This document shows, in pieces, positions 18,137 to 40,255 of a DNA stretch of 64,000 nt. This DNA comes from a phage. Both the position numbers and the translations under genes were made by a program. Every line of letters starts with the position of its first letter. The stretch's first letter is position 1. The stretch is from the sequence record PZ445442.1; one strand, 5' to 3'. Under the pieces are notes generated by a model. It was given only the letters and a program-made list of their open reading frames with translations. It did no database searches and was not told the DNA's origin.

Positions 18137-18740
18137 TACTTGAAAATTCCTGGCATATCAAGTATAAGGGGGATTTCTAAAATGGATTTCCTCCTTTTGA
18201 TATTTCACCGGGCTGGATATTTTAAAATTCTTAGAAAATCAGAAAATGGATCGAAAACTAAAATGGATTTTTCAGAGTAGGCGCGACAAGCTGAATAGCT
18301 CATCCTATCGTTTGCACCATATTCCAGACCACCATTATAGATTTCCCACACATGCTAACCTCCCTCTACTAGAACTTCCTCCACTTACCCTTGACCTTCT
18401 ATGGTAACAATCTAACCACTATCTTGAAGTTGCGGTGCAGCTTTCCAGGTACTCGATCTACTTTTCATTTCAGGGCTTGGATTTTCTGAAAATTTTTCTC
18501 GATAAATTTCTCAGTACTCGATCTGTTTTTCGTTTTCTGAATCGGATTTTCTGGAAATCGTTCCGGATCTCGACCTGAAATTTTTGGGGACGAAATCTAT
18601 TTTTCGTTTTCAGAAATGGATTTTTAAAATTTCTATATGGGAATATTTTATGGGGCACTGTTTTATAGGAAATTGTTACGGAGGGTAATTAGCATGCTAA
18701 TTAAATTTATTAAATGCGAGGGATTCTTATTTAGAATTTT
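18137..18740. repeat. non-coding region with iteron-like direct repeats and palindromes
   Basis: Repeated AAATGGAT boxes (about 18181, 18244, 18260, 18612); degenerate 65-75 bp direct repeats starting GTACTCGATCT (about 18449 and 18514) containing GATTTTCTG(A/G)AAAT and TTTTCGTTTTC; 18-bp perfect palindrome TAATTAGCATGCTAATTA (about 18687-18704); inverted repeat ATACTTGA/TCAAGTAT near 18136-18165. Confidence 0.5.
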
Positions 18741-19620: not shown

Positions 19621-20019
19621 ATGAAAACCACTACCTTTAATTTTGATAATGCAGACTTTTCTTTTTCTGATGTCAAGAACTGCCGCCGTGATCGTGGATT
19701 TTACAAGGCTTATAATCTGGTGGGCCTGGACGATGACAATAATTTGCACGAAGTAGCTGAGATCCGGTATTATGCCGCCGCCAGCGGGAACACTCACTAC
19801 TGCGTGTTTTGGATTCACGACAACAAGAACAATAAGTACGGTTATACTGGCGGCAAGGCGAGCGGTCACGGTTACGATAAAGCTAACGCAGCACTTGAGA
19901 GCGCATTAAATGCTATGGGGATCACTGCCGACGGCTGGATCTACGAAGAAGAGTTTTTGTCGGCACTTGCTGACCACCTGGGCTATAAAAAACACATTGT
20001 AACATGCGCCCACGAATAA
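19621..20019 (+). CDS. hypothetical protein
   Basis: Track ORF; AAGAGGATAA SD; upstream TTGACA-N17-TACACT promoter-like element. Confidence 0.55.
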   Translation: MKTTTFNFDNADFSFSDVKNCRRDRGFYKAYNLVGLDDDNNLHEVAEIRYYAAASGNTHYCVFWIHDNKNNKYGYTGGKASGHGYDKANAALESALNAMGITADGWIYEEEFLSALADHLGYKKHIVTCAHE

Positions 20020-20101
20020 AAATCATTGACACGCTGCAAAATTTAAGTAAACTAGACACAAAAGGCGGGAATGTTTCCCGCCAGCACAAAGGAAAAAGAT
20101 C

Positions 20102-20497
20102 ATGAATAAGAACGTACGCCGCATCATGAACGAACTGGCAAACGATGAAAAAATTATTGATATGCATTTGGTCAACATTTGCCGCCGTTGTGTAACATAT
20201 AACAACCGCGCCGCAAAAGCGCGTGAGATGAACGCAAAAGGCACCTTAAAGCCCTTTCAGGTGGTTGTAAAATCTATAACTAGCGCAGCAGGCCAGGCGC
20301 AGGACCACAACAACGAGAGCGCTAATATTGATCCGTCTTACGTAATGAAACGGATCCGGACTTGCAAGAATAAAGAGCAGGTATATAACGTCATAGATTG
20401 GCTGGACTCCCTGGGCGATGTGGTTTACAATAGGTTTTCTGCAGCTATCGAGATCCAGCTTGACAGATTGGACGGGAAAGTACTAAAAACTTATTGA
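20102..20497 (+). CDS. hypothetical protein
   Basis: Track ORF; upstream TTGACA..TAAACT promoter-like element and GGCGGGAATGTTTCCCGCC leader hairpin. Confidence 0.55.
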   Translation: MNKNVRRIMNELANDEKIIDMHLVNICRRCVTYNNRAAKAREMNAKGTLKPFQVVVKSITSAAGQAQDHNNESANIDPSYVMKRIRTCKNKEQVYNVIDWLDSLGDVVYNRFSAAIEIQLDRLDGKVLKTY

Positions 20498-20498
20498 G

Positions 20499-20545
20499 TT
20501 TATTTTTAGATGGCCTTGACACCAGGGCCATCAATAAAGTAAACT
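20499..20545 (+). promoter_or_regulatory. repeated 47-bp promoter cassette with palindrome over the -35 (copy 1)
   Basis: TTTATTTTTAGATGGCCTTGACACCAGGGCCATCAATAAAGTAAACT; GATGGCC/GGCCATC inverted repeat flanks TTGACA; TAAACT 18 nt downstream. Confidence 0.5.
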
Positions 20546-20576
20546 AACCACAGTTGAGCGGAAAGGGGGCTTAAAG

Positions 20577-20696
20577 ATGAGCACTACACGCCAGCACACA
20601 AAGGTAACCATCATCGTTTGCATCATTGGGTACATCCTGGCGCAAATGTTGATGGGTAGCGCCAACGGTGTCGCAAAATTTTTCTTAAACTTTTAA
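20577..20696 (+). CDS. small hydrophobic peptide (39 aa)
   Basis: ATG after AAAGGGGG SD; MSTTRQHTKVTIIVCIIGYILAQMLMGSANGVAKFFLNF; below track size cutoff. Confidence 0.35.
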   Translation: MSTTRQHTKVTIIVCIIGYILAQMLMGSANGVAKFFLNF

Positions 20697-20724
20697 TTGA
20701 CAAGCTAACTTAAATCGATATAAT
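20697..20724 (+). promoter_or_regulatory. sigma70-type promoter (TTGACA-N16-TATAAT)
   Basis: Perfect consensus hexamers; followed by leader hairpin and AAGGAG SD before gene 20776. Confidence 0.6.
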
Positions 20725-20775
20725 AAGCACATAAACGGGAAAACTTCCCAGAACACACAAAAGGAGAAAAACACC

Positions 20776-21117
20776 ATGACTACTATGACCGCCTCAGAAA
20801 AAGCTATGCAGATCGCTGAACTGAAAAAACAGATCGCAGACCTTGAGAATAAGATCGATAACTTTGAAATCGACGAGGACAAGTACGACGAAAACTATGA
20901 TGAATGGTTAGACGAGATCTACGGCGAAATTATGATCGGAAACATTTCTTTTCTTCCGTCGCGTATCCTCAAGGAGCTAGATCCTATCGCTTACCGCTGC
21001 GGATTTAGCGACTACATCGACAGCCTGGATATTGAGGACGATGAAGAATACCAGGAATTACAGACAGAGTTAGAAGAAGCAAAAGAAGAGCTTGCGGAGC
21101 TGGAAGAAAACGAGTAA
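20776..21117 (+). CDS. hypothetical highly acidic coiled-coil protein
   Basis: Track ORF; Asp/Glu-rich throughout (EDKYDENYDEWLDEIYGEI...DIEDDEEYQELQTELEEAKEELAELEENE). Confidence 0.55.
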   Translation: MTTMTASEKAMQIAELKKQIADLENKIDNFEIDEDKYDENYDEWLDEIYGEIMIGNISFLPSRILKELDPIAYRCGFSDYIDSLDIEDDEEYQELQTELEEAKEELAELEENE

Positions 21118-21118
21118 G

Positions 21119-21165
21119 CTTATTTTTAGATGGCCTTGACACCAGGGCCATCAATAAAGTAAACT
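21119..21165 (+). promoter_or_regulatory. repeated 47-bp promoter cassette (copy 2)
   Basis: Identical to the 20499 copy by eye; degenerate relative at about 21455-21502. Confidence 0.5.
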
Positions 21166-21206
21166 TTATACTGTTAACACTGAACTAATGCATAGGAGTT
21201 AAAACC

Positions 21207-21452
21207 ATGGCAGCACTAATCACCAAATATTATGCCCCTACCAACACCAAAAGCGCCCGTATCATGGTAAAAGGCTTCGGACGTAAAAAGGTGTACACCT
21301 GGGATTATGCCTTAGACACGGAAGACAACTACACCAACGCAATGACCGATTTTATTAATGAACTAAATAAGCAGATCTTGACAAGTTATAAAGTGACCGA
21401 TATTGCTTATATAGGTGAAGGCGGGATCTGTTTTGTAGGCATTGTGAAATAG
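21207..21452 (+). CDS. hypothetical protein
   Basis: Track ORF; ATAGGAGTT SD. Confidence 0.55.
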   Translation: MAALITKYYAPTNTKSARIMVKGFGRKKVYTWDYALDTEDNYTNAMTDFINELNKQILTSYKVTDIAYIGEGGICFVGIVK

Positions 21453-21526
21453 TTATTTTTTCGGTGGTCCTGGTTGCAGGGCCATCTATAAAGATAATTT
21501 ATTAACACCATGAAAGGAGAAAGTAC

Positions 21527-22066
21527 ATGATCAGCGGGGCAAGTTTTATTATTGGCGCTATTGCTACGGCTTTAATTGTAAATAAGATCCAGGATAAAAA
21601 GGAAAGAGGAAGTACCGCCCTTGCAGAATATCCATTTTGGGCATTCAACGATAACGAAGATTATATTATAAAGTATAAAAATAAAGAAGGTGACCAAGTA
21701 ACACCGCGACCGATCCCGGCTTACAAAATGCAGGAAACACTATACCGCCTGGAGGCGGGAGGCGCAAAAATTGTAGACTTTTGGGGATACGACCACACAG
21801 ATCAGGAAGTTATAAAGCGCCGTATCCGGGCTATTCAGGCCAATATTGAAGTTAGCAAGGGGGAATATATGAAAATTAATTTCGAGAAAATTGTAAAGCG
21901 CCCTCATGATTCCGAAGAGCTGCCAGAACGCCGCCAGCGTAACAATAAACTGAATAAGCCAAAAAGGTTTGGGAAGATCTGGCGTAATCATTATGATCGT
22001 AAATTGCCCGGCCTACTTTTGGAACGTGAACGACAGGCAGAACGATACCGCCATAAAGACAAATAA
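21527..22066 (+). CDS. hypothetical membrane-anchored protein
   Basis: Track ORF; N-terminal hydrophobic helix, basic C-terminus; GAAAGGAGAAAG SD. Confidence 0.55.
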   Translation: MISGASFIIGAIATALIVNKIQDKKERGSTALAEYPFWAFNDNEDYIIKYKNKEGDQVTPRPIPAYKMQETLYRLEAGGAKIVDFWGYDHTDQEVIKRRIRAIQANIEVSKGEYMKINFEKIVKRPHDSEELPERRQRNNKLNKPKRFGKIWRNHYDRKLPGLLLERERQAERYRHKDK

Positions 22067-22074
22067 CAACCAAC

Positions 22075-22103
22075 GCCCCGCCATTGTGCGGGGCTTTTTA
22101 TTT
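22075..22103 (+). terminator. rho-independent terminator
   Basis: GCCCCGC-CATTGT-GCGGGGC stem followed by TTTTTATTT. Confidence 0.6.
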
Positions 22104-22307
22104 CTATCCTACGAATAGCGCCCCTGGTTGGCCCCACAAACGCCACAAAAGCCCCTACCTATGCAATCCCCTTTCTTGACCTGAAAACAACGTCTAGGGC
22201 CGTTTTATGGCGTTAAAAATATTATTGACAGTGATTTTATTCAAAGCTTGACACCTTGGAATAGTCCGGATATACTAACCACATCAAAGCAAGAAGGAGT
22301 AAACGCC

Positions 22308-22568
22308 ATGCGTAAATTAAAAAATTTTGATAAAGTAGATGTTGTCCTGAATAATTTTTACTACTGCAATAATAAAGCCGTTTGGTGGCGTGATAGCTCC
22401 ACCGATAAAGTTAAAGCGCGCTTTCTCCAGGGGCACTGGCAAGGCCGCCCAGTGATTAAAATCTTAGGGCAATTGGTAGCGTTTAAAAATTGCCACCGTG
22501 TTGACGACGTTGAAGATATTTTGAACATTTTACGCCACAATAATTTAAAAAATAGTGTTGACAAGTAA
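22308..22568 (+). CDS. hypothetical protein
   Basis: Track ORF 22248..22568 trimmed to ATG 22308 after AAGGAGT SD; TTGACA-N17-TATACT promoter-like element upstream (about 22248-22276). Confidence 0.5.
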   Translation: MRKLKNFDKVDVVLNNFYYCNNKAVWWRDSSTDKVKARFLQGHWQGRPVIKILGQLVAFKNCHRVDDVEDILNILRHNNLKNSVDK

Positions 22569-22585
22569 GCCTCAATAAGTATACT
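22558..22585 (+). promoter_or_regulatory. sigma70-type promoter (TTGACA-N16-TATACT) with GC leader hairpin
   Basis: Hexamers read from sequence; followed by GGCGGG-AAAACTT-CCCGCC hairpin and AGGAG SD before ATG 22643. Confidence 0.55.
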
Positions 22586-22642
22586 TAAACACACAGGCGG
22601 GAAAACTTCCCGCCACTAACAAAGAAAATAGGAGAAAATATC

Positions 22643-23266
22643 ATGACCACCGTTAACATTACTACAGGTTACAATTTATCTTTCGACGTGCTGACCGACG
22701 AACAAAAAGAAAAAGCCGTTGAAATGGTCCGCGAAAGAGAAGAACACAGCGGGGATAATTTTTTTGCAGAAAGTGTAATTGAATACTATAAAGAATATGT
22801 TTTTCCAGAGTATGGCCTTGAAGATACCGAAGTACATTGGTCAGGCTTTTGGTGCCAGGGTGACGGCGCGTCAATCAGTGCGGAAAACGTGGATTTAGAA
22901 AAATTCTTGCGTAAAGTAAAGGCCCTGACCAAGTTCCGATCAATTCGTCACTTGTTCGGCACAATGCACGATGGCGAGCTATCCGCAAGTGTTGAGCGTG
23001 ATCCATATAGCCGCTATAGTCACGAAAACACTGTAAGCGGGTACATCGATACTACATGGCTAGACCTGACCGCCAAACAAGAAAATAAAGTGGAAGATCT
23101 GGAAGAGCTGATCACCGAGACGGTACGGGAGCTATCCCGCAAGGTTTACGTAGACCTGGAGGAGGCCTATCTTGAGCAATTTACCGCCGAAAACTTGATC
23201 GGCCTTATCGAGGCAAATGATTGGCGGTTTGATGTGGATGAGCATGGCGAGATGAGTTTTTCATAA
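22643..23266 (+). CDS. hypothetical protein
   Basis: Track ORF with promoter, leader hairpin and SD upstream. Confidence 0.55.
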   Translation: MTTVNITTGYNLSFDVLTDEQKEKAVEMVREREEHSGDNFFAESVIEYYKEYVFPEYGLEDTEVHWSGFWCQGDGASISAENVDLEKFLRKVKALTKFRSIRHLFGTMHDGELSASVERDPYSRYSHENTVSGYIDTTWLDLTAKQENKVEDLEELITETVRELSRKVYVDLEEAYLEQFTAENLIGLIEANDWRFDVDEHGEMSFS

Positions 23267-23355
23267 ATAAAGTGTTGCAATAATCTAAAAACCTGCTATA
23301 TTAAAACTCAAGGGGCAAGACGTTTGCCCCCACACAAAACAAAGAGGAAAACATC

Positions 23356-23736
23356 ATGAAAAACACTACTAAAGCTATTGACACCGTCATGTTTAACCTG
23401 GTTACATTCCGTGAAGATATGAAAGATCTTCCTCGTGAAACAGTGTGCGACCATATCGAAAACTATCGCAAACTAATCAAAGAGTTGCCTTTAAAACGTG
23501 ATCAATATGCGGCTAACGCCATGCTTAATGCCATGATCAAAAAGATGATCCAGTGTGATTTAACCCTGGCCTATGATTATGCAGGCGGTCGTTTTGCAGT
23601 ATACAATCAGCCCGTGCCCGGTATGAGCACCACCGAAGAATTGCACGCGCTCAATCTAAAACAAGACGTGTGGGATAGTATGCCTCGCGTGGTGGTATGG
23701 GTAGAAAGCGGAAAGATTTACGGCGATAATTTTTAA
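23356..23736 (+). CDS. hypothetical protein
   Basis: Track ORF; AAAGAGGAAAA SD; GGGGCAAGACGTTTGCCCC leader hairpin. Confidence 0.55.
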   Translation: MKNTTKAIDTVMFNLVTFREDMKDLPRETVCDHIENYRKLIKELPLKRDQYAANAMLNAMIKKMIQCDLTLAYDYAGGRFAVYNQPVPGMSTTEELHALNLKQDVWDSMPRVVVWVESGKIYGDNF

Positions 23737-23800
23737 TCAGGTAGCAGGCGGCATATTTGCCGCCTTATTGTTAATCAGAACTGTAAAAGAGGTACATAGA

Positions 23801-24172
23801 ATGGAATTTATTATTTTGGCTGTATTTGTTGCCTTGTTCAACGCCTGGATCGCTGGCAAGATGGGTAGATCCGCCTTTTTATGGTTTATTATATCTATTT
23901 TCCTGGGGGTGGTTGCAACTATTGTACTTGTTATCCTTGCAATTGTTGACAAGGGGAATAATAGAAAGGGTAAAGTATTTTCAGACCTGTACGACGCTCA
24001 AACGTTTGTCAACGCCTATTATAGTGATCTTCCAGTCTCCCTACGCTGCAGCCTGGCACAACAAGTTTTCGATGAGGCTAAAACCAGAGATCAAGCCCAT
24101 GAGATATGTTTAACTGAGGCGGATCGCCTATTTGAGAGGAATAGAAAATATGTGGGCCAACCGTTTAAATAA
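23801..24172 (+). CDS. hypothetical membrane protein
   Basis: Track ORF 23768..24172 trimmed to ATG 23801; two predicted TM helices in first 55 aa. Confidence 0.5.
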   Translation: MEFIILAVFVALFNAWIAGKMGRSAFLWFIISIFLGVVATIVLVILAIVDKGNNRKGKVFSDLYDAQTFVNAYYSDLPVSLRCSLAQQVFDEAKTRDQAHEICLTEADRLFERNRKYVGQPFK

Positions 24173-24371
24173 TGCCACATTAATTAATCCCTTTAGTGAA
24201 GATTTGAAGCCAGCCGCCTGGCGTGATGGATTCAATAACGAACGCTTTATTTTCAAGCCTGATCTTGAGGAATTTTATAACAATGGATCGAACAACGACA
24301 GAGATAATTTTTCTTGTGGTGTGCGTAGTGATGGTACTCCTGGGGGCCATTGTAAACCACGTCACTACTAA
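24150..24371 (+). CDS. hypothetical protein
   Basis: Track ORF 24132..24371 trimmed to ATG after GAGAGG SD; an alternative overlapping small TM ORF (in track ORF 24223..24408) cannot be excluded. Confidence 0.4.
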   Translation: MWANRLNNATLINPFSEDLKPAAWRDGFNNERFIFKPDLEEFYNNGSNNDRDNFSCGVRSDGTPGGHCKPRHY

Positions 24372-24391
24372 CAGGGGGAAAGGGGGAGACG

Positions 24392-24511
24392 ATGACACCC
24401 AAGGATAAGCCCCGCACCGATAAGGCGCGCCGTGTTATGGTATGGCTTGAGATCATCGCCCTTGAAATATTGTTAGGGGTAGGGATGTACTTTATCGCTG
24501 TAAGTAACTAA
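24392..24511 (+). CDS. small hydrophobic peptide (39 aa)
   Basis: ATG after GGGGGAGACG SD; MTPKDKPRTDKARRVMVWLEIIALEILLGVGMYFIAVSN; below track cutoff. Confidence 0.35.
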   Translation: MTPKDKPRTDKARRVMVWLEIIALEILLGVGMYFIAVSN

Positions 24512-24515
24512 GAAC

Positions 24516-24544
24516 GGCCCCCCGATCATGGGGGCCTATCTTTT
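24516..24544 (+). terminator. rho-independent terminator
   Basis: GGCCCCCC-GATCAT-GGGGGCC stem followed by TATCTTTT. Confidence 0.5.
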
Positions 24545-24648
24545 AAAAAAATTCTTCCGGGGTGTTGCAATCCGGTCCGGAATGTGGATAATAACAATCA
24601 ACGGGGAGCTAATCCCCACCACCACAAAAACCAGAAAGGAGAAACAAA

Positions 24649-24849
24649 ATGAGCAACAATATCCGCGTTATTAACTTCAAAAAAGAAGAAAAAATTGCCG
24701 TGCTGATTGACGGTCAAGAAATCTTCAAGGGCGACTATGAAGATCATCAAACGGCGATTAGTATCACTCGCGTGATTGGTTACCATAATTTTTACCCCCA
24801 AGGCGCTGAGGCAGCGGTTAAACGAATCAAAGAGATTGTAGGCCTGTAA
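24649..24849 (+). CDS. hypothetical protein
   Basis: Track ORF; AAAGGAGAAAC SD. Confidence 0.55.
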   Translation: MSNNIRVINFKKEEKIAVLIDGQEIFKGDYEDHQTAISITRVIGYHNFYPQGAEAAVKRIKEIVGL

Positions 24850-24851
24850 AA

Positions 24852-24898
24852 TTTATTTTTAGATGGCCTTGACTCCAGGGCCATCAATAAAGTAAATT
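24852..24898 (+). promoter_or_regulatory. repeated 47-bp promoter cassette (copy 3, TTGACT variant)
   Basis: ATTTATTTTTAGATGGCCTTGACTCCAGGGCCATCAATAAAGTAAATT. Confidence 0.5.
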
Positions 24899-24943
24899 TA
24901 AACCCTGTTAAAAATACCACGCAGTTAACAAGGAGTGATAGAC

Positions 24944-25243
24944 ATGTTTATCCAGGCTAATAATCTTTATTTCTTTGATGGTCAGATCGTAGACGGCGTG
25001 GAGGTGGAAATCACCGGGTGCCCTAGCGGTCAGGTTATGACTTTTCGGAATAATGCCTTTGATGATTCTCATATCGTTATGAGAATGGAAGTTAGTAAGC
25101 TGGATGACAAGAAAACACTTATCGACTATTCCGTCAAAGATCATCCAGACTACCACATGATCTATGGTGATTTGTGCATTGTTGACCGTGACAAGGTTGG
25201 CGGCATTGTGATCGCTATTGTGAACGATGTTTTCTCAAACTAA
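24944..25243 (+). CDS. hypothetical protein
   Basis: Track ORF 24935..25243 trimmed to ATG 24944 after AAGGAGTG SD. Confidence 0.5.
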   Translation: MFIQANNLYFFDGQIVDGVEVEITGCPSGQVMTFRNNAFDDSHIVMRMEVSKLDDKKTLIDYSVKDHPDYHMIYGDLCIVDRDKVGGIVIAIVNDVFSN

Positions 25244-25260
25244 TTTCAGCAGGTAATTTT

Positions 25261-25611
25261 ATGAAAGTAAAACTATATTACCTTAATGAGCTTAACCCCC
25301 TTGCCCAGGTCCGCGCCCTGGCTAATACCTTGATTTGTGAGAAATCTGTATATTGTGTTGAGCTTAACGCCATGCGTGAACGTCTCAAAGGTGGTTACTT
25401 TGACATCCATGCTGCAATCAACGGCCTGAATATAGAATTTATCCGCTTACGTAACAGCCGCCAGAATCTGGCAAGAATGGAACAAGATCCGGCCCACCTT
25501 CGTAAGCTGGTTATTGAAAATCATCTGATGTTTAATGCCGATGGTGATTATTACCATTTTCACCGTAAACGCTGGTACCGTAGCGGCAATATAGGAAAGA
25601 ATGCAAAATAA
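25261..25611 (+). CDS. hypothetical protein
   Basis: Track ORF. Confidence 0.55.
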   Translation: MKVKLYYLNELNPLAQVRALANTLICEKSVYCVELNAMRERLKGGYFDIHAAINGLNIEFIRLRNSRQNLARMEQDPAHLRKLVIENHLMFNADGDYYHFHRKRWYRSGNIGKNAK

Positions 25612-26168: not shown

Positions 26169-26402
26169 ATGATGGAACAAATTAAACGCGCTGAGTCTAT
26201 TAATGGCAATGTGATCTATTTTGTCAGCAAAAACGAAAAAGGCGTACCATATGCGGCGGTAATAGTACAACCTGACGGCGATTATTGGTTTACTGTATAC
26301 GGATCTTATTCTTTCGGGCGTCCGGTTCATGATAGAATTTTGAAAGTAGCAAATCCGACCGGGAAAAATATCACAGCAGAAAAATTTTTTGAAAATAGTT
26401 GA
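26169..26402 (+). CDS. hypothetical protein
   Basis: Track ORF; AAGAGAGG SD. Confidence 0.55.
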   Translation: MMEQIKRAESINGNVIYFVSKNEKGVPYAAVIVQPDGDYWFTVYGSYSFGRPVHDRILKVANPTGKNITAEKFFENS

Positions 26403-26478
26403 CATGACCATATAAGACTGTAATATATAAATCAAAGGGGGGCAACAAGCCCCACCAACCACAAAGAGGATAAAAATC

Positions 26479-26658: not shown

Positions 26659-26743
26659 AATAGTTTGACAACAATTACAAATCGGGTAGAATGTATTTCG
26701 TAGGGCGGCAATGATGCCGCTCACAACTAAAAGAGAGATCATC

Positions 26744-26938: not shown

Positions 26939-27015
26939 TTTGACAACAGTCAACAATCTGGTAAAGTGTACTACATAGCGCGGGAATACTTCCCGCCATT
27001 AATGAGGGTAATTTA

Positions 27016-27153: not shown

Positions 27154-27236
27154 ATCTTGACAATAGTTTATTACTTGATAGACTGTATTTCGTAGGGCGG
27201 GGCAATAAGGCAACGCCCATTAATGAGGGTAGAATC

Positions 27237-28329: not shown

Positions 28330-28495
28330 TTATACTTGTTTCACGGCAGGCACCTGGCGACGGGTGGAGACAATCACCGGGCCTGCCTGTCATATAAGAA
28401 CTATAAAAACCGTTGACATCTGCCAGGTGGTGGGGTAACATTTATCTTGAAGGGGCAAAAGTGCCCACACAACAACCAGAAGAGAGGAAAACATT

Positions 28496-29997: not shown

Positions 29998-30599
29998 TCT
30001 GCTCTTCCCCCTACCATAAACGGCCCTACCTGGCAAGTGGAATAATTGACGAGCCATCAATCCCACACACTGTACAAACATACATATAAAATAACTATTG
30101 CATAATTTTTCATTGTGTGGTAGCAGGGCCATTTTTACACATTTTTCCTTCCAAAATTGCACGTAATGCAGCATTTGCACAAAATTTAACCTGATGCATA
30201 TATTCAATAGCTTGTCAACAACTAAAAATCTTTATAAGTCATACACTTACATAACTACAAAAGCGTTTTCTACGTGAAAAATCGAGTATAACTATAGCCG
30301 CCAGATCTCAGAATTTACGTACGCTCGCCATTCTATAGCCTGCTAAGCATTTATTCCAACCATAGAATAACGGAATAGTCAATACCTGCATAAAATAATT
30401 ATTCGTGTAAACTGCATAACATAAATCGGCCCAGGTGTCAACATTTTTCGTAAACAGTCTGGAATTGTCACGTTAGGTTACCATAAGCAGAGAAATCTTT
30501 AGTCGTCTAATGTTTACTGTACGTTACTATATTAACTGAAATCATTAGATGACTAATAGAAAGATAAGAAATAATTAACAATACAATTATTTTATCTGT

Positions 30600-40059: not shown

Positions 40060-40063
40060 AATT

Positions 40064-40255
40064 CAGCCTCGCATAGACATAATCACTATAAACAGGCAAA
40101 CAATGAATCCGAATGCCACGCCACCCATAAACGTTAATATTGATGCAATCATAGTCAATCAGCCTCGCATAGACATAATCACTATAAACAGGCAAACAAT
40201 GAATCCGAATGCCACGCCACCCATAAACGTTAATATTGATGCAATCATAGTCAAT
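40064..40255. repeat. perfect tandem direct repeat, 2 x 96 bp (plus 9-bp start of a third unit)
   Basis: Unit CAGCCTCGCATAGACATAATCACTATAAACAGGCAAACAATGAATCCGAATGCCACGCCACCCATAAACGTTAATATTGATGCAATCATAGTCAAT appears twice back-to-back; intergenic on the minus strand. Confidence 0.8.

Follow-up and report, generated by a model that had tools for sequence, protein, structure and literature searches.

A clustered intergenic cassette in the early region of phage EmilHeitz

The window analyzed here, a stretch of 64,000 nucleotides (sequence record PZ445442.1), corresponds with 100% identity to Escherichia phage EmilHeitz (Vequintavirus, rV5-like). Four copies of a 49-nt cassette lie on its + strand at 20497-20545, 21117-21165, 21451-21499 and 24850-24898 (copies 1 to 4), clustered in one 4.4-kb stretch of the early-gene region of this coliphage. 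The original prediction had described a 47-bp repeat at three sites with a degenerate fourth relative, and this was borne out: the 47-mer matched at 20499, 21119 and 24852 with 0, 1 and 2 mismatches respectively, 100 dinucleotide-preserving shuffles yielded no match, and copy 3 was found to be 71% identical in register. Copy 3 scored 71 bits (E 3.5e-14) with a covariance model that was itself built from all four copies, so that this score is partly circular. Searching with this type of model detected no further copy in the window or in the rest of the 140-kb EmilHeitz genome. Furthermore, BLAST of the cassette against 50,697 phage records returned matches in Vequintavirus only, a pattern scan of IMG/VR followed by the covariance model recovered Vequintavirus contigs only, and no Rfam family matched at the cassettes at E ≤ 1.

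The cassettes are surrounded by small + strand genes of 39-207 codons encoding hypothetical proteins, a variable intergenic setting such as that described for the PeSLs (promoter-early stem-loops) discussed below. Their expected position at gene stops was confirmed, each cassette starting at most one base away from where an annotated + strand gene terminates. Copy 1 begins on the final base of the TGA that closes gene 20102-20497 and copy 2 on the final base of the TAA that closes gene 20776-21117, while copy 3 overlaps the TAG stop of gene 21207-21452 and copy 4 lies directly 3' of the TAA stop of gene 24649-24849. The next start codons are found 27-45 nt past the cassettes, all on the + strand: bas49_0109 (20577-20696) is the first gene 3' of copy 1, 31 nt past it; bas49_0111 (21207-21452), which has homologues in unrelated phages, begins 41 nt past copy 2; bas49_0112 (21527-22066) lies 3' of copy 3 and is followed by a canonical intrinsic terminator (22075-22094); and bas49_0120 (24944-25243) begins 45 nt past copy 4.

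Copies 1 and 2 delimit a 620-bp unit (20546-21165, + strand) comprising genes 20577-20696 and 20776-21117 and a canonical promoter at 20697-20724. According to the gene tables and the junction sequences, this unit is missing in four relatives, magaca, ime, ECP26 and phiWec189, which carry instead a single chimeric cassette, flanked as copy 1 is on the left and as copy 2 is on the right; BLAST coverage ends at query base 76, corresponding to position 20545 of the window. These four phages display two different upstream-flank haplotypes. The exact absence of 620 bp together with the single chimeric cassette shows that recombination took place between cassettes and deleted or inserted the intervening genes.

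Hairpin structure and comparative evidence

As + strand RNA, the whole 49-nt element folds into a bipartite hairpin in which two stems of 10 bp each, the lower one A/U and the upper one G/C, are separated by a 2x3 internal loop and capped by a tetraloop. In copy 1 the lower stem pairs 20497-20506 with 20536-20545, the internal loop is made of 20507-20508 and 20533-20535, the upper stem pairs 20509-20518 with 20523-20532, and the tetraloop ACAC occupies 20519-20522. The 7-bp inverted repeat initially reported around TTGACA is indeed present, GATGGCC (20509-20515) and GGCCATC (20526-20532) bracketing TTGACA (20516-20521) in copy 1, but it is only the core of this larger 10+10 bp structure, which includes G-T(U) pairs. 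The common fold was obtained for 4/4 copies at -22 to -25 kcal/mol (z -4.8 to -6.6): -25.1 kcal/mol (z -6.6) for copy 1, -22.3 kcal/mol for copy 2 with the same hairpin, -24.0 kcal/mol for copy 3, whose two-tier hairpin carries a GUUG loop, and -23.6 kcal/mol for copy 4. The - strand folded much more weakly (-10.3 kcal/mol for copy 3). Over the 36 distinct sequences available from related phages, the mean values were -22.3 kcal/mol for the + strand and -13.7 kcal/mol for the - strand, the + strand folding better in 36/36, and it is because of the G.U pairs that the hairpin is far more stable as + strand RNA. The asymmetric 2x3 internal loop, which can be redrawn as one mismatch and one bulge, is kept in all copies, its bases differing in copy 3. 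Folding with DNA parameters, which covered copies 1, 3 and 4, gave almost equal values for both strands of copies 1 and 4 (-12.3/-12.6 versus -10.7 kcal/mol) and poor values for copy 3 (-7.6 and -4.9 kcal/mol), in which the lower stem was lost.

In 36/36 distinct sequences the bases after the stem read AATAAAG (TATAAAG in copy 3), and a T-tract is absent from every copy in every phage compared. In a terminator scan none of the four EmilHeitz copies was called; the real terminators nearby possess a T-tract. Since it has no U-tract, the hairpin is probably not an efficient intrinsic terminator.

We compared 59 copies, representing the 36 distinct sequences, from 16 Vequintavirus loci. Out of 720 pair cells 98.8% were paired, as against 33-58% when the partners were slid by 1-3 columns. 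Thirty cells were changed on both sides, and the observed values were reached in 0/500 shuffles, a control that ignores relatedness and was run on an alignment fitted to the model; the compared genomes are close relatives (about 87-100% identical) and the independent substitution events are few. Compensatory series were observed at columns 8/50 (A-U/G-U/G-C), 6/52 (U-A/C-G) and 5/53 (G-C/A-U), and swapped A-U/U-A pairs also figure among the differences between copies and phages. Gene conversion could be part of the cause of the near-identity of copies 1, 2 and 4. The orthologues of copy 3 covary among themselves, and copy 3 is, judging by its divergence, too distant for homogenization by the other copies. 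Additionally, the cassette was better conserved than the neighboring coding DNA at 4/4 sites, with a diversity of 0.03-0.07 compared to 0.065-0.11 in the upstream coding DNA and 0.07-0.21 in the downstream spacer. We conclude from this comparative evidence that base pairing of the 49-nt hairpin is under selection on the sense strand.

In phage Gotham, a 5-nt deletion destroys the upper stem of copy 1, and this phage is evidently viable.

Promoter signals and competing interpretations

Copies 1, 2 and 4 carry TTGAC(A/T) and TAAA(C/T)T separated by an 18-bp spacer, with 9-10/12 matches to the consensus, all on the + strand. In copy 1 (10/12 matches) the TTG of the -35-like TTGACA (20516-20521) closes the upper stem and its ACA lies in the loop, the -10-like TAAACT (20540-20545) being located in the 3' arm of the lower stem. 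Copy 2 has TTGACA at 21136-21141 with TAAACT at 21160-21165, and copy 4 has TTGACT at 24869-24874 with TAAATT at 24893-24898. The proposal of a promoter with its -35 in a hairpin holds up for these three copies but not for copy 3, which displays CCTGGTTGCAGG where TTGACA would be expected and has no -35 hexamer. The -35/-10 hexamers are kept in 27/28 distinct sequences of copies 1, 2 and 4 across the 16 loci; TTGAC is invariant and the sixth -35 base takes all four values, so that the two loop bases within the -35 (A, C) are fixed and the following loop base can be any of the four. PhagePromoter, run on phage Gotham, called 2/3 equivalent sites, those of copies 2 and 4. TTGACA is also the exact -35 of EmilHeitz early promoters, TAAACT is the -10 of a PeSL-like promoter at 20026, and the chance of encountering TTGAC with a correctly spaced TAnnnT in 49 nt is, by a rough estimate, about 1 in 1000. 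TTGAC-N19-TAAAYT in copies 1, 2 and 4 is a plausible candidate sigma-70 promoter. It is to be noted that this promoter would be atypical for EmilHeitz: its spacer measures 18 bp, its -10 has 4/6 matches, the DNA directly 5' of its -35 is G/C-rich, and a 5' hairpin is missing downstream. In the clear early promoters of the vicinity the spacer is 16-17 bp long, and the start is often followed by a G/C hairpin. The first T of the -35 is engaged in a U.G pair that is replaced by C-G in the promoterless copy 3, which looks like a compromise between promoter and hairpin functions. The literature searched contained no Vequintavirus transcript data.

These features bear on several alternative interpretations. 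The cassette might be a pure RNA element, either an RNase III processing site or a 3' stabilizer of polycistronic early messages, in which TTGACA and TAAACT are not used as a promoter. The hairpin is the sole feature common to all four copies, copy 3 having no -35, and the strand asymmetry, the covariation, the atypical promoter and a two-turn helix with internal loop, the architecture of RNase III substrates, all agree with such an element. We nevertheless regard it as rather unlikely, given the low probability of the spaced hexamers arising by chance, the identity of TTGACA with the early -35 sequence, the fixed A and C next to a freely varying loop base and the exchange of U.G for C-G precisely in the copy that has no promoter. 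Considerably less credible is the arrangement first proposed, a sigma-70 promoter with a built-in operator, where a dimeric regulator bound to GATGGCC-N10-GGCCATC would switch the units together. Compatible with it are the perfect 7-bp inverted repeat that surrounds the -35 of three copies and the presence, elsewhere in EmilHeitz, of genes for a putative transcriptional regulator and for an anti-sigma factor; furthermore, stem-loop palindromes at -35 can double as transcription-factor sites. The LexA site at yobI/ruvA, which overlaps a terminator palindrome, is such a case and shares with the cassettes an inverted repeat overlapping the -35. However, the complementarity extends over 20 bp per arm and not 7, with compensatory changes in its A/T-rich outer part, and in contrast to operator palindromes the substitutions preserve RNA pairing and break the symmetry of the DNA half-sites: in copy 3 the left half-site is GGTGGTC and the right GGCCATC is unchanged, so that G.U pairing is kept and DNA symmetry is lost. 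The strong preference for the + strand in all 36 distinct sequences also speaks against an operator. Copy 3 has no TTGACA and yet retains the hairpin; the constraint common to the copies is therefore pairing, not an operator. The half-site centers are 17 bp apart, a spacing unusual for a dimer on one helix face, no candidate binding protein was identified, and the sequence analysis gave no sign of co-regulation by which one factor would switch the units together.

About as hard to sustain as the operator is the idea that the cassettes are decayed terminator remnants, the scenario that the original prediction had itself named as its refutation, or functionless selfish intergenic repeats kept similar by gene conversion. 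Their stem looks like that of a G/C terminator, the copies recombine with one another as direct repeats, and the Gotham deletion was tolerated; against this stand the conservation of the cassette relative to adjoining coding DNA at 4/4 sites, the compensatory changes among orthologues of a copy 3 too diverged to be homogenized, and the missing T-tract in all copies of all phages, present in real terminators nearby. Structures formed by the DNA itself appear the least probable of all, whether a supercoiling-extruded cruciform hiding the promoter or a single-stranded hairpin promoter of the N4 virion-polymerase or F-plasmid Frpo kind. Copies 1 and 4 do fold as DNA on both strands and A/T-rich flanks favor cruciform extrusion, but copy 3 folds poorly as DNA, and a G-T pair on one strand corresponds to an A-C mismatch on the opposite one. 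Moreover, a hairpin promoter made of single-stranded DNA would have to form on the template strand, whereas it is the coding strand that folds better. The cassettes lack an N4-type stem of 5-7 bp closed by a 3-nt loop, and the annotation of the EmilHeitz record lists no phage RNA polymerase.

Relation to known modules and proposed function

The nearest known counterparts of the cassettes are the PeSLs, found in the T4-like phages RB49/phi1, PST/T4 and nt-1/KVP40 (Arbiol et al. 2010, PMC2839356; Comeau et al. 2014, PMC4122927), along with the promoter-coupled terminators treated below. PeSLs begin at the upstream stop codon in A/T-rich DNA, contain a sigma-70 promoter together with a G-T-paired stem-loop that can extend over the -35, and allow genes to be shuffled (PMC2839356). 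The EmilHeitz cassettes likewise are repeated intergenic motifs among small early ORFans that start, A/T-rich, at the upstream stop codon and are followed by a Shine-Dalgarno sequence and a start codon. Both have sigma-70-like -35/-10 elements (matched in sequence by copies 1, 2 and 4, not by copy 3) and a stable stem-loop with G-T pairs overlapping the -35, which in the cassette runs from the end of the upper stem into the loop, and in both, recombination between copies removes or inserts the flanked genes. In contrast to the T4-like hosts of PeSLs, the cassettes reside in a Vequintavirus and showed no sequence relationship to published PeSLs in the BLAST and IMG/VR searches; the entire promoter, A/T tract and -10 included, lies within their two-tier helix of about two turns, they have no U-tract, one copy is promoterless, and only four copies exist, all inside a single 4.4-kb stretch. 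Some PeSLs have had their terminator and promoter activities measured; the promoter of the cassettes is a prediction from sequence. As PeSL denotes a functional class and not a homology family, we limit our claim to the cassettes being of the same kind in an independent lineage. A further parallel is provided by the promoter-coupled intrinsic terminators of bacteria, in which a stem-loop coincides with the -35 (Fletcher et al., bioRxiv 10.64898/2026.08.19.745784). There too, a palindrome lies at the -35 of the next tandem gene and one DNA stretch serves as the end and the start of units, but these terminators have a T-tract between stem and -10, where the cassettes have AATAAAG, and RNA 3' ends mapped about 10 bp before the start site.

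RNase III substrates measure about two turns, and internal loops restrict the enzyme to a single cleavage, after which protective 3' hairpins remain (Pertzev and Nicholson 2006, PMC1540722). The helix needed, about two turns with at least 11 bp from cut to loop (PMC1540722), corresponds to the 10 + 10 bp and 2x3 loop of the cassette, and an internal loop, of the kind that limits cleavage at a target site to one strand, is found in all copies. T7 R1.1-type sites resemble the cassettes in being intergenic hairpins on polycistronic early messages from host polymerase, of about two turns split by an asymmetric internal loop and with a UA/UG step near the loop; they have no promoter and no sequence relationship to the cassettes, for which the RNase III role is predicted. 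Near the loop of copies 1, 2 and 4 a U-A pair adjoins a U.G pair, the U.G being C-G in copy 3. If UA/UG is taken as the distal box, a G-C pair, a binding antideterminant, would fall at or near position 2 of the proximal box, in a mapping that is ambiguous and uses our own register. From the two-turn length, the asymmetric internal loop and the covarying A/U lower stem, we infer that a site for double-strand-RNA processing or protection would fit the hairpin best.

Altogether, the repeats resemble the cassettes known from T4-like phages and not a new operator-controlled switch, and we consider it reasonably probable that they are composite PeSL-type cassettes between small early genes, combining RNA hairpin and sigma-70 promoter roles. 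In such composite cassettes, read-through from upstream early promoters (e.g. 20026, 20697, 24565) would make the hairpin a 3' end structure of the upstream cistron RNA. A candidate event, in the style of T7 early sites, is that RNase III cuts the internal loop once, on its 3' side, so that the upstream message would keep a protective 3' hairpin. In copies 1, 2 and 4, host sigma-70 RNA polymerase would read TTGACN, the 18-bp spacer and TAAAYT on the DNA, and a start about 7 nt beyond the cassette would re-prime transcription of the next gene; copy 3 would have lost its promoter and serve as a hairpin only.

More tentatively, the cassette may be a self-contained boundary module, a possibility to which we lend limited credence, in which the host promoter recognition region from the A/T tract to the -10 lies inside a selected two-turn RNA hairpin, read-through RNA would be cut or capped by RNase III or another double-strand-RNA reader where the new transcript starts, and the same 49 bp would act as a crossover site for single genes. 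Should this be true, PeSL-like modular shuffling would have arisen independently outside the T4-like phages, with RNA processing replacing termination.

Four copies of a hairpin-forming cassette

Bases 20000-25500 of the window share 100% identity with Escherichia phage EmilHeitz (Bas49 of the BASEL collection, MZ501062.1), a Vequintavirus and rV5-like myovirus, the window coordinate being the MZ501062.1 record coordinate minus 64682. A repeat finder delineated in this region a 49-nt family of four members, termed copies 1 to 4, located at 20497-20545, 21117-21165, 21451-21499 (71% identity) and 24850-24898. The 47-mer of the original prediction was matched exactly at 20499, with one mismatch at 21119 and with two at 24852, and found no match in 100 shuffles. 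When a covariance model built from the four copies was run with its filters off, only those copies were matched in the window and no further cassette was found in the remaining 76 kb of the EmilHeitz genome. Tandem duplication of a longer segment could be ruled out, as the copies resemble each other only up to the 49-nt borders. All four start at most one base away from an annotated gene's stop codon, and the next start codon lies 27-45 nt past the cassette end. They reside within a series of short + strand genes annotated as hypothetical proteins, where near-consensus sigma-70 promoters abound alongside several ordinary intrinsic terminators, a layout indicating an early region transcribed by the host polymerase. 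G/C hairpins at 22075-22094 and 24516-24536, called as terminators on both strands (the second with T-poor tails), delimit the cassette-containing transcription units.

The + strand RNA of all four copies folds into one common 49-nt hairpin, with energies of -22 to -25 kcal/mol and z-scores of -4.8 to -6.6 relative to shuffles. A 10-bp A/U-rich lower stem forms the base of the structure and is followed by an asymmetric internal loop, with 2 nt in the 5' strand against 3 nt in the 3' strand, and by a 10-bp G/C-rich upper stem capped by a tetraloop. The fold of the reverse strand is far weaker (-17.2 kcal/mol for copy 1 and -10.3 for copy 3) because the G.U pairs of the hairpin become A-C mismatches on the opposite strand. 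The 7-bp inverted repeat originally described is thus present, its size and nature having been misjudged: it is just the core of the 49-nt hairpin. The accompanying proposal that the -35 hexamer sits inside a hairpin was borne out, with TTG closing the upper stem and ACA in the loop. The putative promoter lies wholly within the structure, its spacer corresponding to the 3' arm of the upper stem plus the internal loop and its TAAACT -10 to the end of the lower stem, where it pairs with the A/T tract upstream of the -35.

Other repeats were encountered in the window. A short stretch at 30118-30142, TGGTAGCAGGGCCATTTTT, is similar to copy 3 in the latter's 3' half and has a T-run after it; no corresponding hairpin forms (-9.6 kcal/mol, z -0.07), and the resemblance is probably fortuitous. 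At 40063-40254, between two - strand ORFs, a 96-bp unit is perfectly duplicated in tandem; by manual reading, each unit carries on the - strand TTGACT and a 29-codon hydrophobic mini-ORF, MIASILTFMGGVAFGFIVCLFIVIMSMRG, so that the duplication would give adjacent, identical genes for two tiny membrane peptides. Annotated genes are missing from a gap of roughly 300 bp (18137-18435), after which three imperfect direct repeats, each 47-62 nt long, occur at intervals of 65-74 bp (18439-18624; repeat families D5 and D8). The repeats overlap very short annotated ORFs, and Tandem Repeats Finder detects only a 12-bp fragment of them. The map in the rV5 paper likewise shows a "non-coding" box, and the gap and repeats together could constitute an origin or iteron-like region.

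Selection on base pairing in the sense-strand RNA

We compared 59 copies from 16 loci, corresponding to 36 distinct sequences. In an alignment derived from the covariance model itself, with gap-free stems though, standard pairs occupied 98.8% of the 720 pair cells, as compared to 33-58% when the 3' partners were slid by 1-3 columns. Both sides had changed in 30 pair cells, a count that reflects few independent substitution events since the compared genomes are close relatives. The observed pairing, double-change count and covariation score were each reached by 0 of 500 shuffles, in a control that ignores the relatedness of the genomes. Among orthologues of copy 3, columns 8/50 pair as A-U, G-U or G-C and columns 6/52 as U-A or C-G; among paralogues, A-U and U-A are swapped at columns 8/50 and 9/49, and G-C alternates with A-U at 5/53. 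The + strand RNA folded better than the - strand in all 36 distinct sequences (means of -22.3 and -13.7 kcal/mol, respectively). At all four sites, between-phage variability was lower in the cassette (0.03-0.07) than in the upstream coding DNA (0.065-0.11) and not above that of the downstream spacer (0.07-0.21).

Copy 3 separates the hairpin from the promoter. TTGACA is absent from this copy and from all its orthologues, in which the loop region reads CCTGG(T/C)(T/A/G)(G/A)CAGG and no correctly spaced -35/-10 pair was found. Both stems and the internal-loop geometry are nevertheless kept, and copy 3 bears most of the covariation, indicating that base pairing is the constraint common to all copies. 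Relative to copy 1, the 5' arm of its upper stem carries three differences, each opposite G or U, which change A-U to G.U, C-G to U.G and U.G to C-G; pairing is preserved and the DNA palindrome is broken. This is the prediction of an RNA helix and not of a symmetric operator, and the suggestion of a built-in operator for a dimeric regulator consequently found no support. We conclude that the repeat is real, conserved and functional-looking and that a sense-strand hairpin is under selection at the 3' end of four cistrons.

By BLAST against 50,697 phage genomes, the cassette was restricted to Vequintavirus records, and in IMG/VR it occurred in Vequintavirus contigs only: 40 pattern matches contained real copies in just one additional Vequintavirus contig, and a model search of eight loci encoding relatives of the neighbouring gene (seven of them distant) gave no further copies. 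The distant loci held no analogous repeat family in the corresponding positions. A host origin is ruled out by the absence of any match among 5,426 complete E. coli genomes, and a known RNA family by the absence of any Rfam match. Seventeen UNVERIFIED "Campylobacter phage" records, with Campylobacter jejuni given as host, share 87-98% identity with E. coli Vequintavirus genomes over the cassette region and are probably mislabelled or contaminant assemblies. The copy-1 orthologue of phage Gotham (MT682716, 5025-5074) lacks 5 nt (GGGCC) in the 3' arm of the upper stem, which destroys the hairpin and cuts the promoter spacer to 13 bp; here either one cassette has been knocked out naturally or the sequence is in error.

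Probable promoter activity and possible roles of the hairpin

Copies 1, 2 and 4 likely function as promoters, judging from their sequence. They match the consensus at 9-10 of 12 positions with an 18-bp spacer. Of 28 distinct sequences, 27 retain TTGAC, whereas any of the four bases can follow at the sixth position of the hexamer. Nearly all clear early promoters nearby use TTGACA as their -35, the early promoter at 20026 shares the TAAACT -10, and in phage Gotham PhagePromoter calls the sites corresponding to copies 2 and 4. Counting against this assignment are the spacer length (18 bp versus 16-17 in neighbouring promoters), the G/C-rich DNA directly upstream of the -35 and the lack of the 5' hairpin seen after many neighbouring promoters. 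The first T of the -35 forms a U.G pair in the promoter-bearing copies and is replaced by a C-G pair in the promoterless one, which fits a compromise between promoter and hairpin functions. The rV5 paper derived promoters from a consensus search only and does not annotate the cassette sites, and a literature search for transcript maps of rV5-like phages found none. A Frpo-type or N4-type single-stranded DNA promoter is ruled out by strand and geometry.

A second, commoner cassette class was apparent from repeat families D3, D6 and D11 and from folds, at 20026-20090, 20697-20760, 22558-22620, 26399-26460, 26665-26720, 26940-27000, 27157-27215 and 28413-28470. It consists of a near-consensus TTGACA-N16/17-TAnnnT promoter and, about 10 nt past the -10, a G/C-rich hairpin of -13 to -15 kcal/mol, of which GCGGGAAAACTTCCCGCC is one example. 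The class either belongs to the subclass of the promoter-early stem-loop cassettes (PeSLs) of T4-like phages in which the stem-loop lies beyond the -10, or has a hairpin that stabilises the 5' end.

Transcripts reading through from promoters further upstream would form the 49-nt hairpin, and at copies 1, 2 and 4 the host polymerase would restart just beyond the cassette. An intrinsic terminator is improbable, as no T-tract follows the stem on either strand and the terminator scan was negative; genuine terminators nearby do have T-tracts, and without a U-tract, unlike these, the hairpin is unlikely to terminate transcription efficiently. The weak A/U lower stem and fixed internal loop under selection, in a helix of about two turns, would suit dsRNA recognition and not merely a stable plug. 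RNase III of E. coli acts on substrates about two turns long, and internal loops confine cleavage to one strand, leaving protective 3' hairpins (PMC1540722); the T7 early processing sites follow the same logic as the cut envisaged here. Placement of the proximal and distal boxes on the hairpin is ambiguous and would include a possible antideterminant. By this analogy the hairpin may be processed by RNase III, which we consider possible rather than probable, the fallback being a role as a 3' exonuclease barrier or partial attenuator.

Recombination junctions and relation to other promoter/stem-loop modules

Phages magaca, ime, ECP26 and phiWec189 lack both genes located between copies 1 and 2 (20577-20696 and 20776-21117). 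The deletion junction is a single cassette that begins as copy 1, preceded by that copy's upstream flank, and that is followed by the flank found after copy 2; BLAST coverage of the copy-1 region ends exactly on the last base of the cassette. The deletion allele is present on two differing versions of the upstream gene, implying that it arose repeatedly or that recombination spread it afterwards. Cassettes are therefore recombination junctions, and the deletion needs no mechanism beyond ordinary homologous recombination over 47 identical bases. An integron attC-like site had been a candidate because the cassette is an imperfect palindrome with a bulged base directly after a stop codon. It was ruled out, since the cassette ends do not fit what we take to be the attC R-box consensus, no integrase is annotated in the examined portions of the EmilHeitz feature table and homologous recombination is sufficient. 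The 81-codon gene following copy 2 (21207-21452) has 35-46% identical homologues in unrelated phages, namely 60-kb Escherichia siphoviruses (e.g. slur01), Pseudomonas myoviruses and Klebsiella 40-kb phages. It is widely travelled, as mobile ORFans should be.

The closest described elements are the PeSLs (Arbiol et al. 2010, PMC2839356; Comeau et al. 2014, PMC4122927), which are repeated, start at the upstream stop codon in A/T-rich DNA as do the Vequintavirus cassettes, combine a sigma-70 promoter with a stem-loop containing G-T pairs placed between, over or beside the -35 and -10, and also mediate modular gene shuffling. Five of the seven listed PeSL features are found here if the sigma-70-like promoter, putative in copies 1, 2 and 4, is counted. 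The Vequintavirus cassettes differ in belonging to a different host lineage, in having no detectable sequence similarity to PeSLs, and in a hairpin that encloses the whole promoter, lacks a U-tract and in one member is promoterless. According to a 2026 preprint (bioRxiv 10.64898/2026.08.19.745784), terminator stem-loops across bacteria commonly share their DNA with the -35 of the following promoter, and regulators can also bind such palindromes; the cassette has the same geometry as these promoter-coupled terminators but lacks their defining T-tract.

The cassette extends PeSL-like modules beyond T4-like phages and supplies a natural promoterless control copy. Its sites are unannotated or labelled as plain promoters in about 120 deposited genomes, and for phage engineering the cassettes are natural junctions for gene removal. 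With four copies, one of them naturally promoterless, and natural deletion alleles, Vequintavirus offers a clean test case in which what the hairpin does as RNA could be told apart from what the promoter does as DNA. If the reading is true, promoter/stem-loop cassettes that insulate and shuffle small early genes would not be confined to T4-like phages, and such composite cassettes would be a recurrent solution in large lytic phages.
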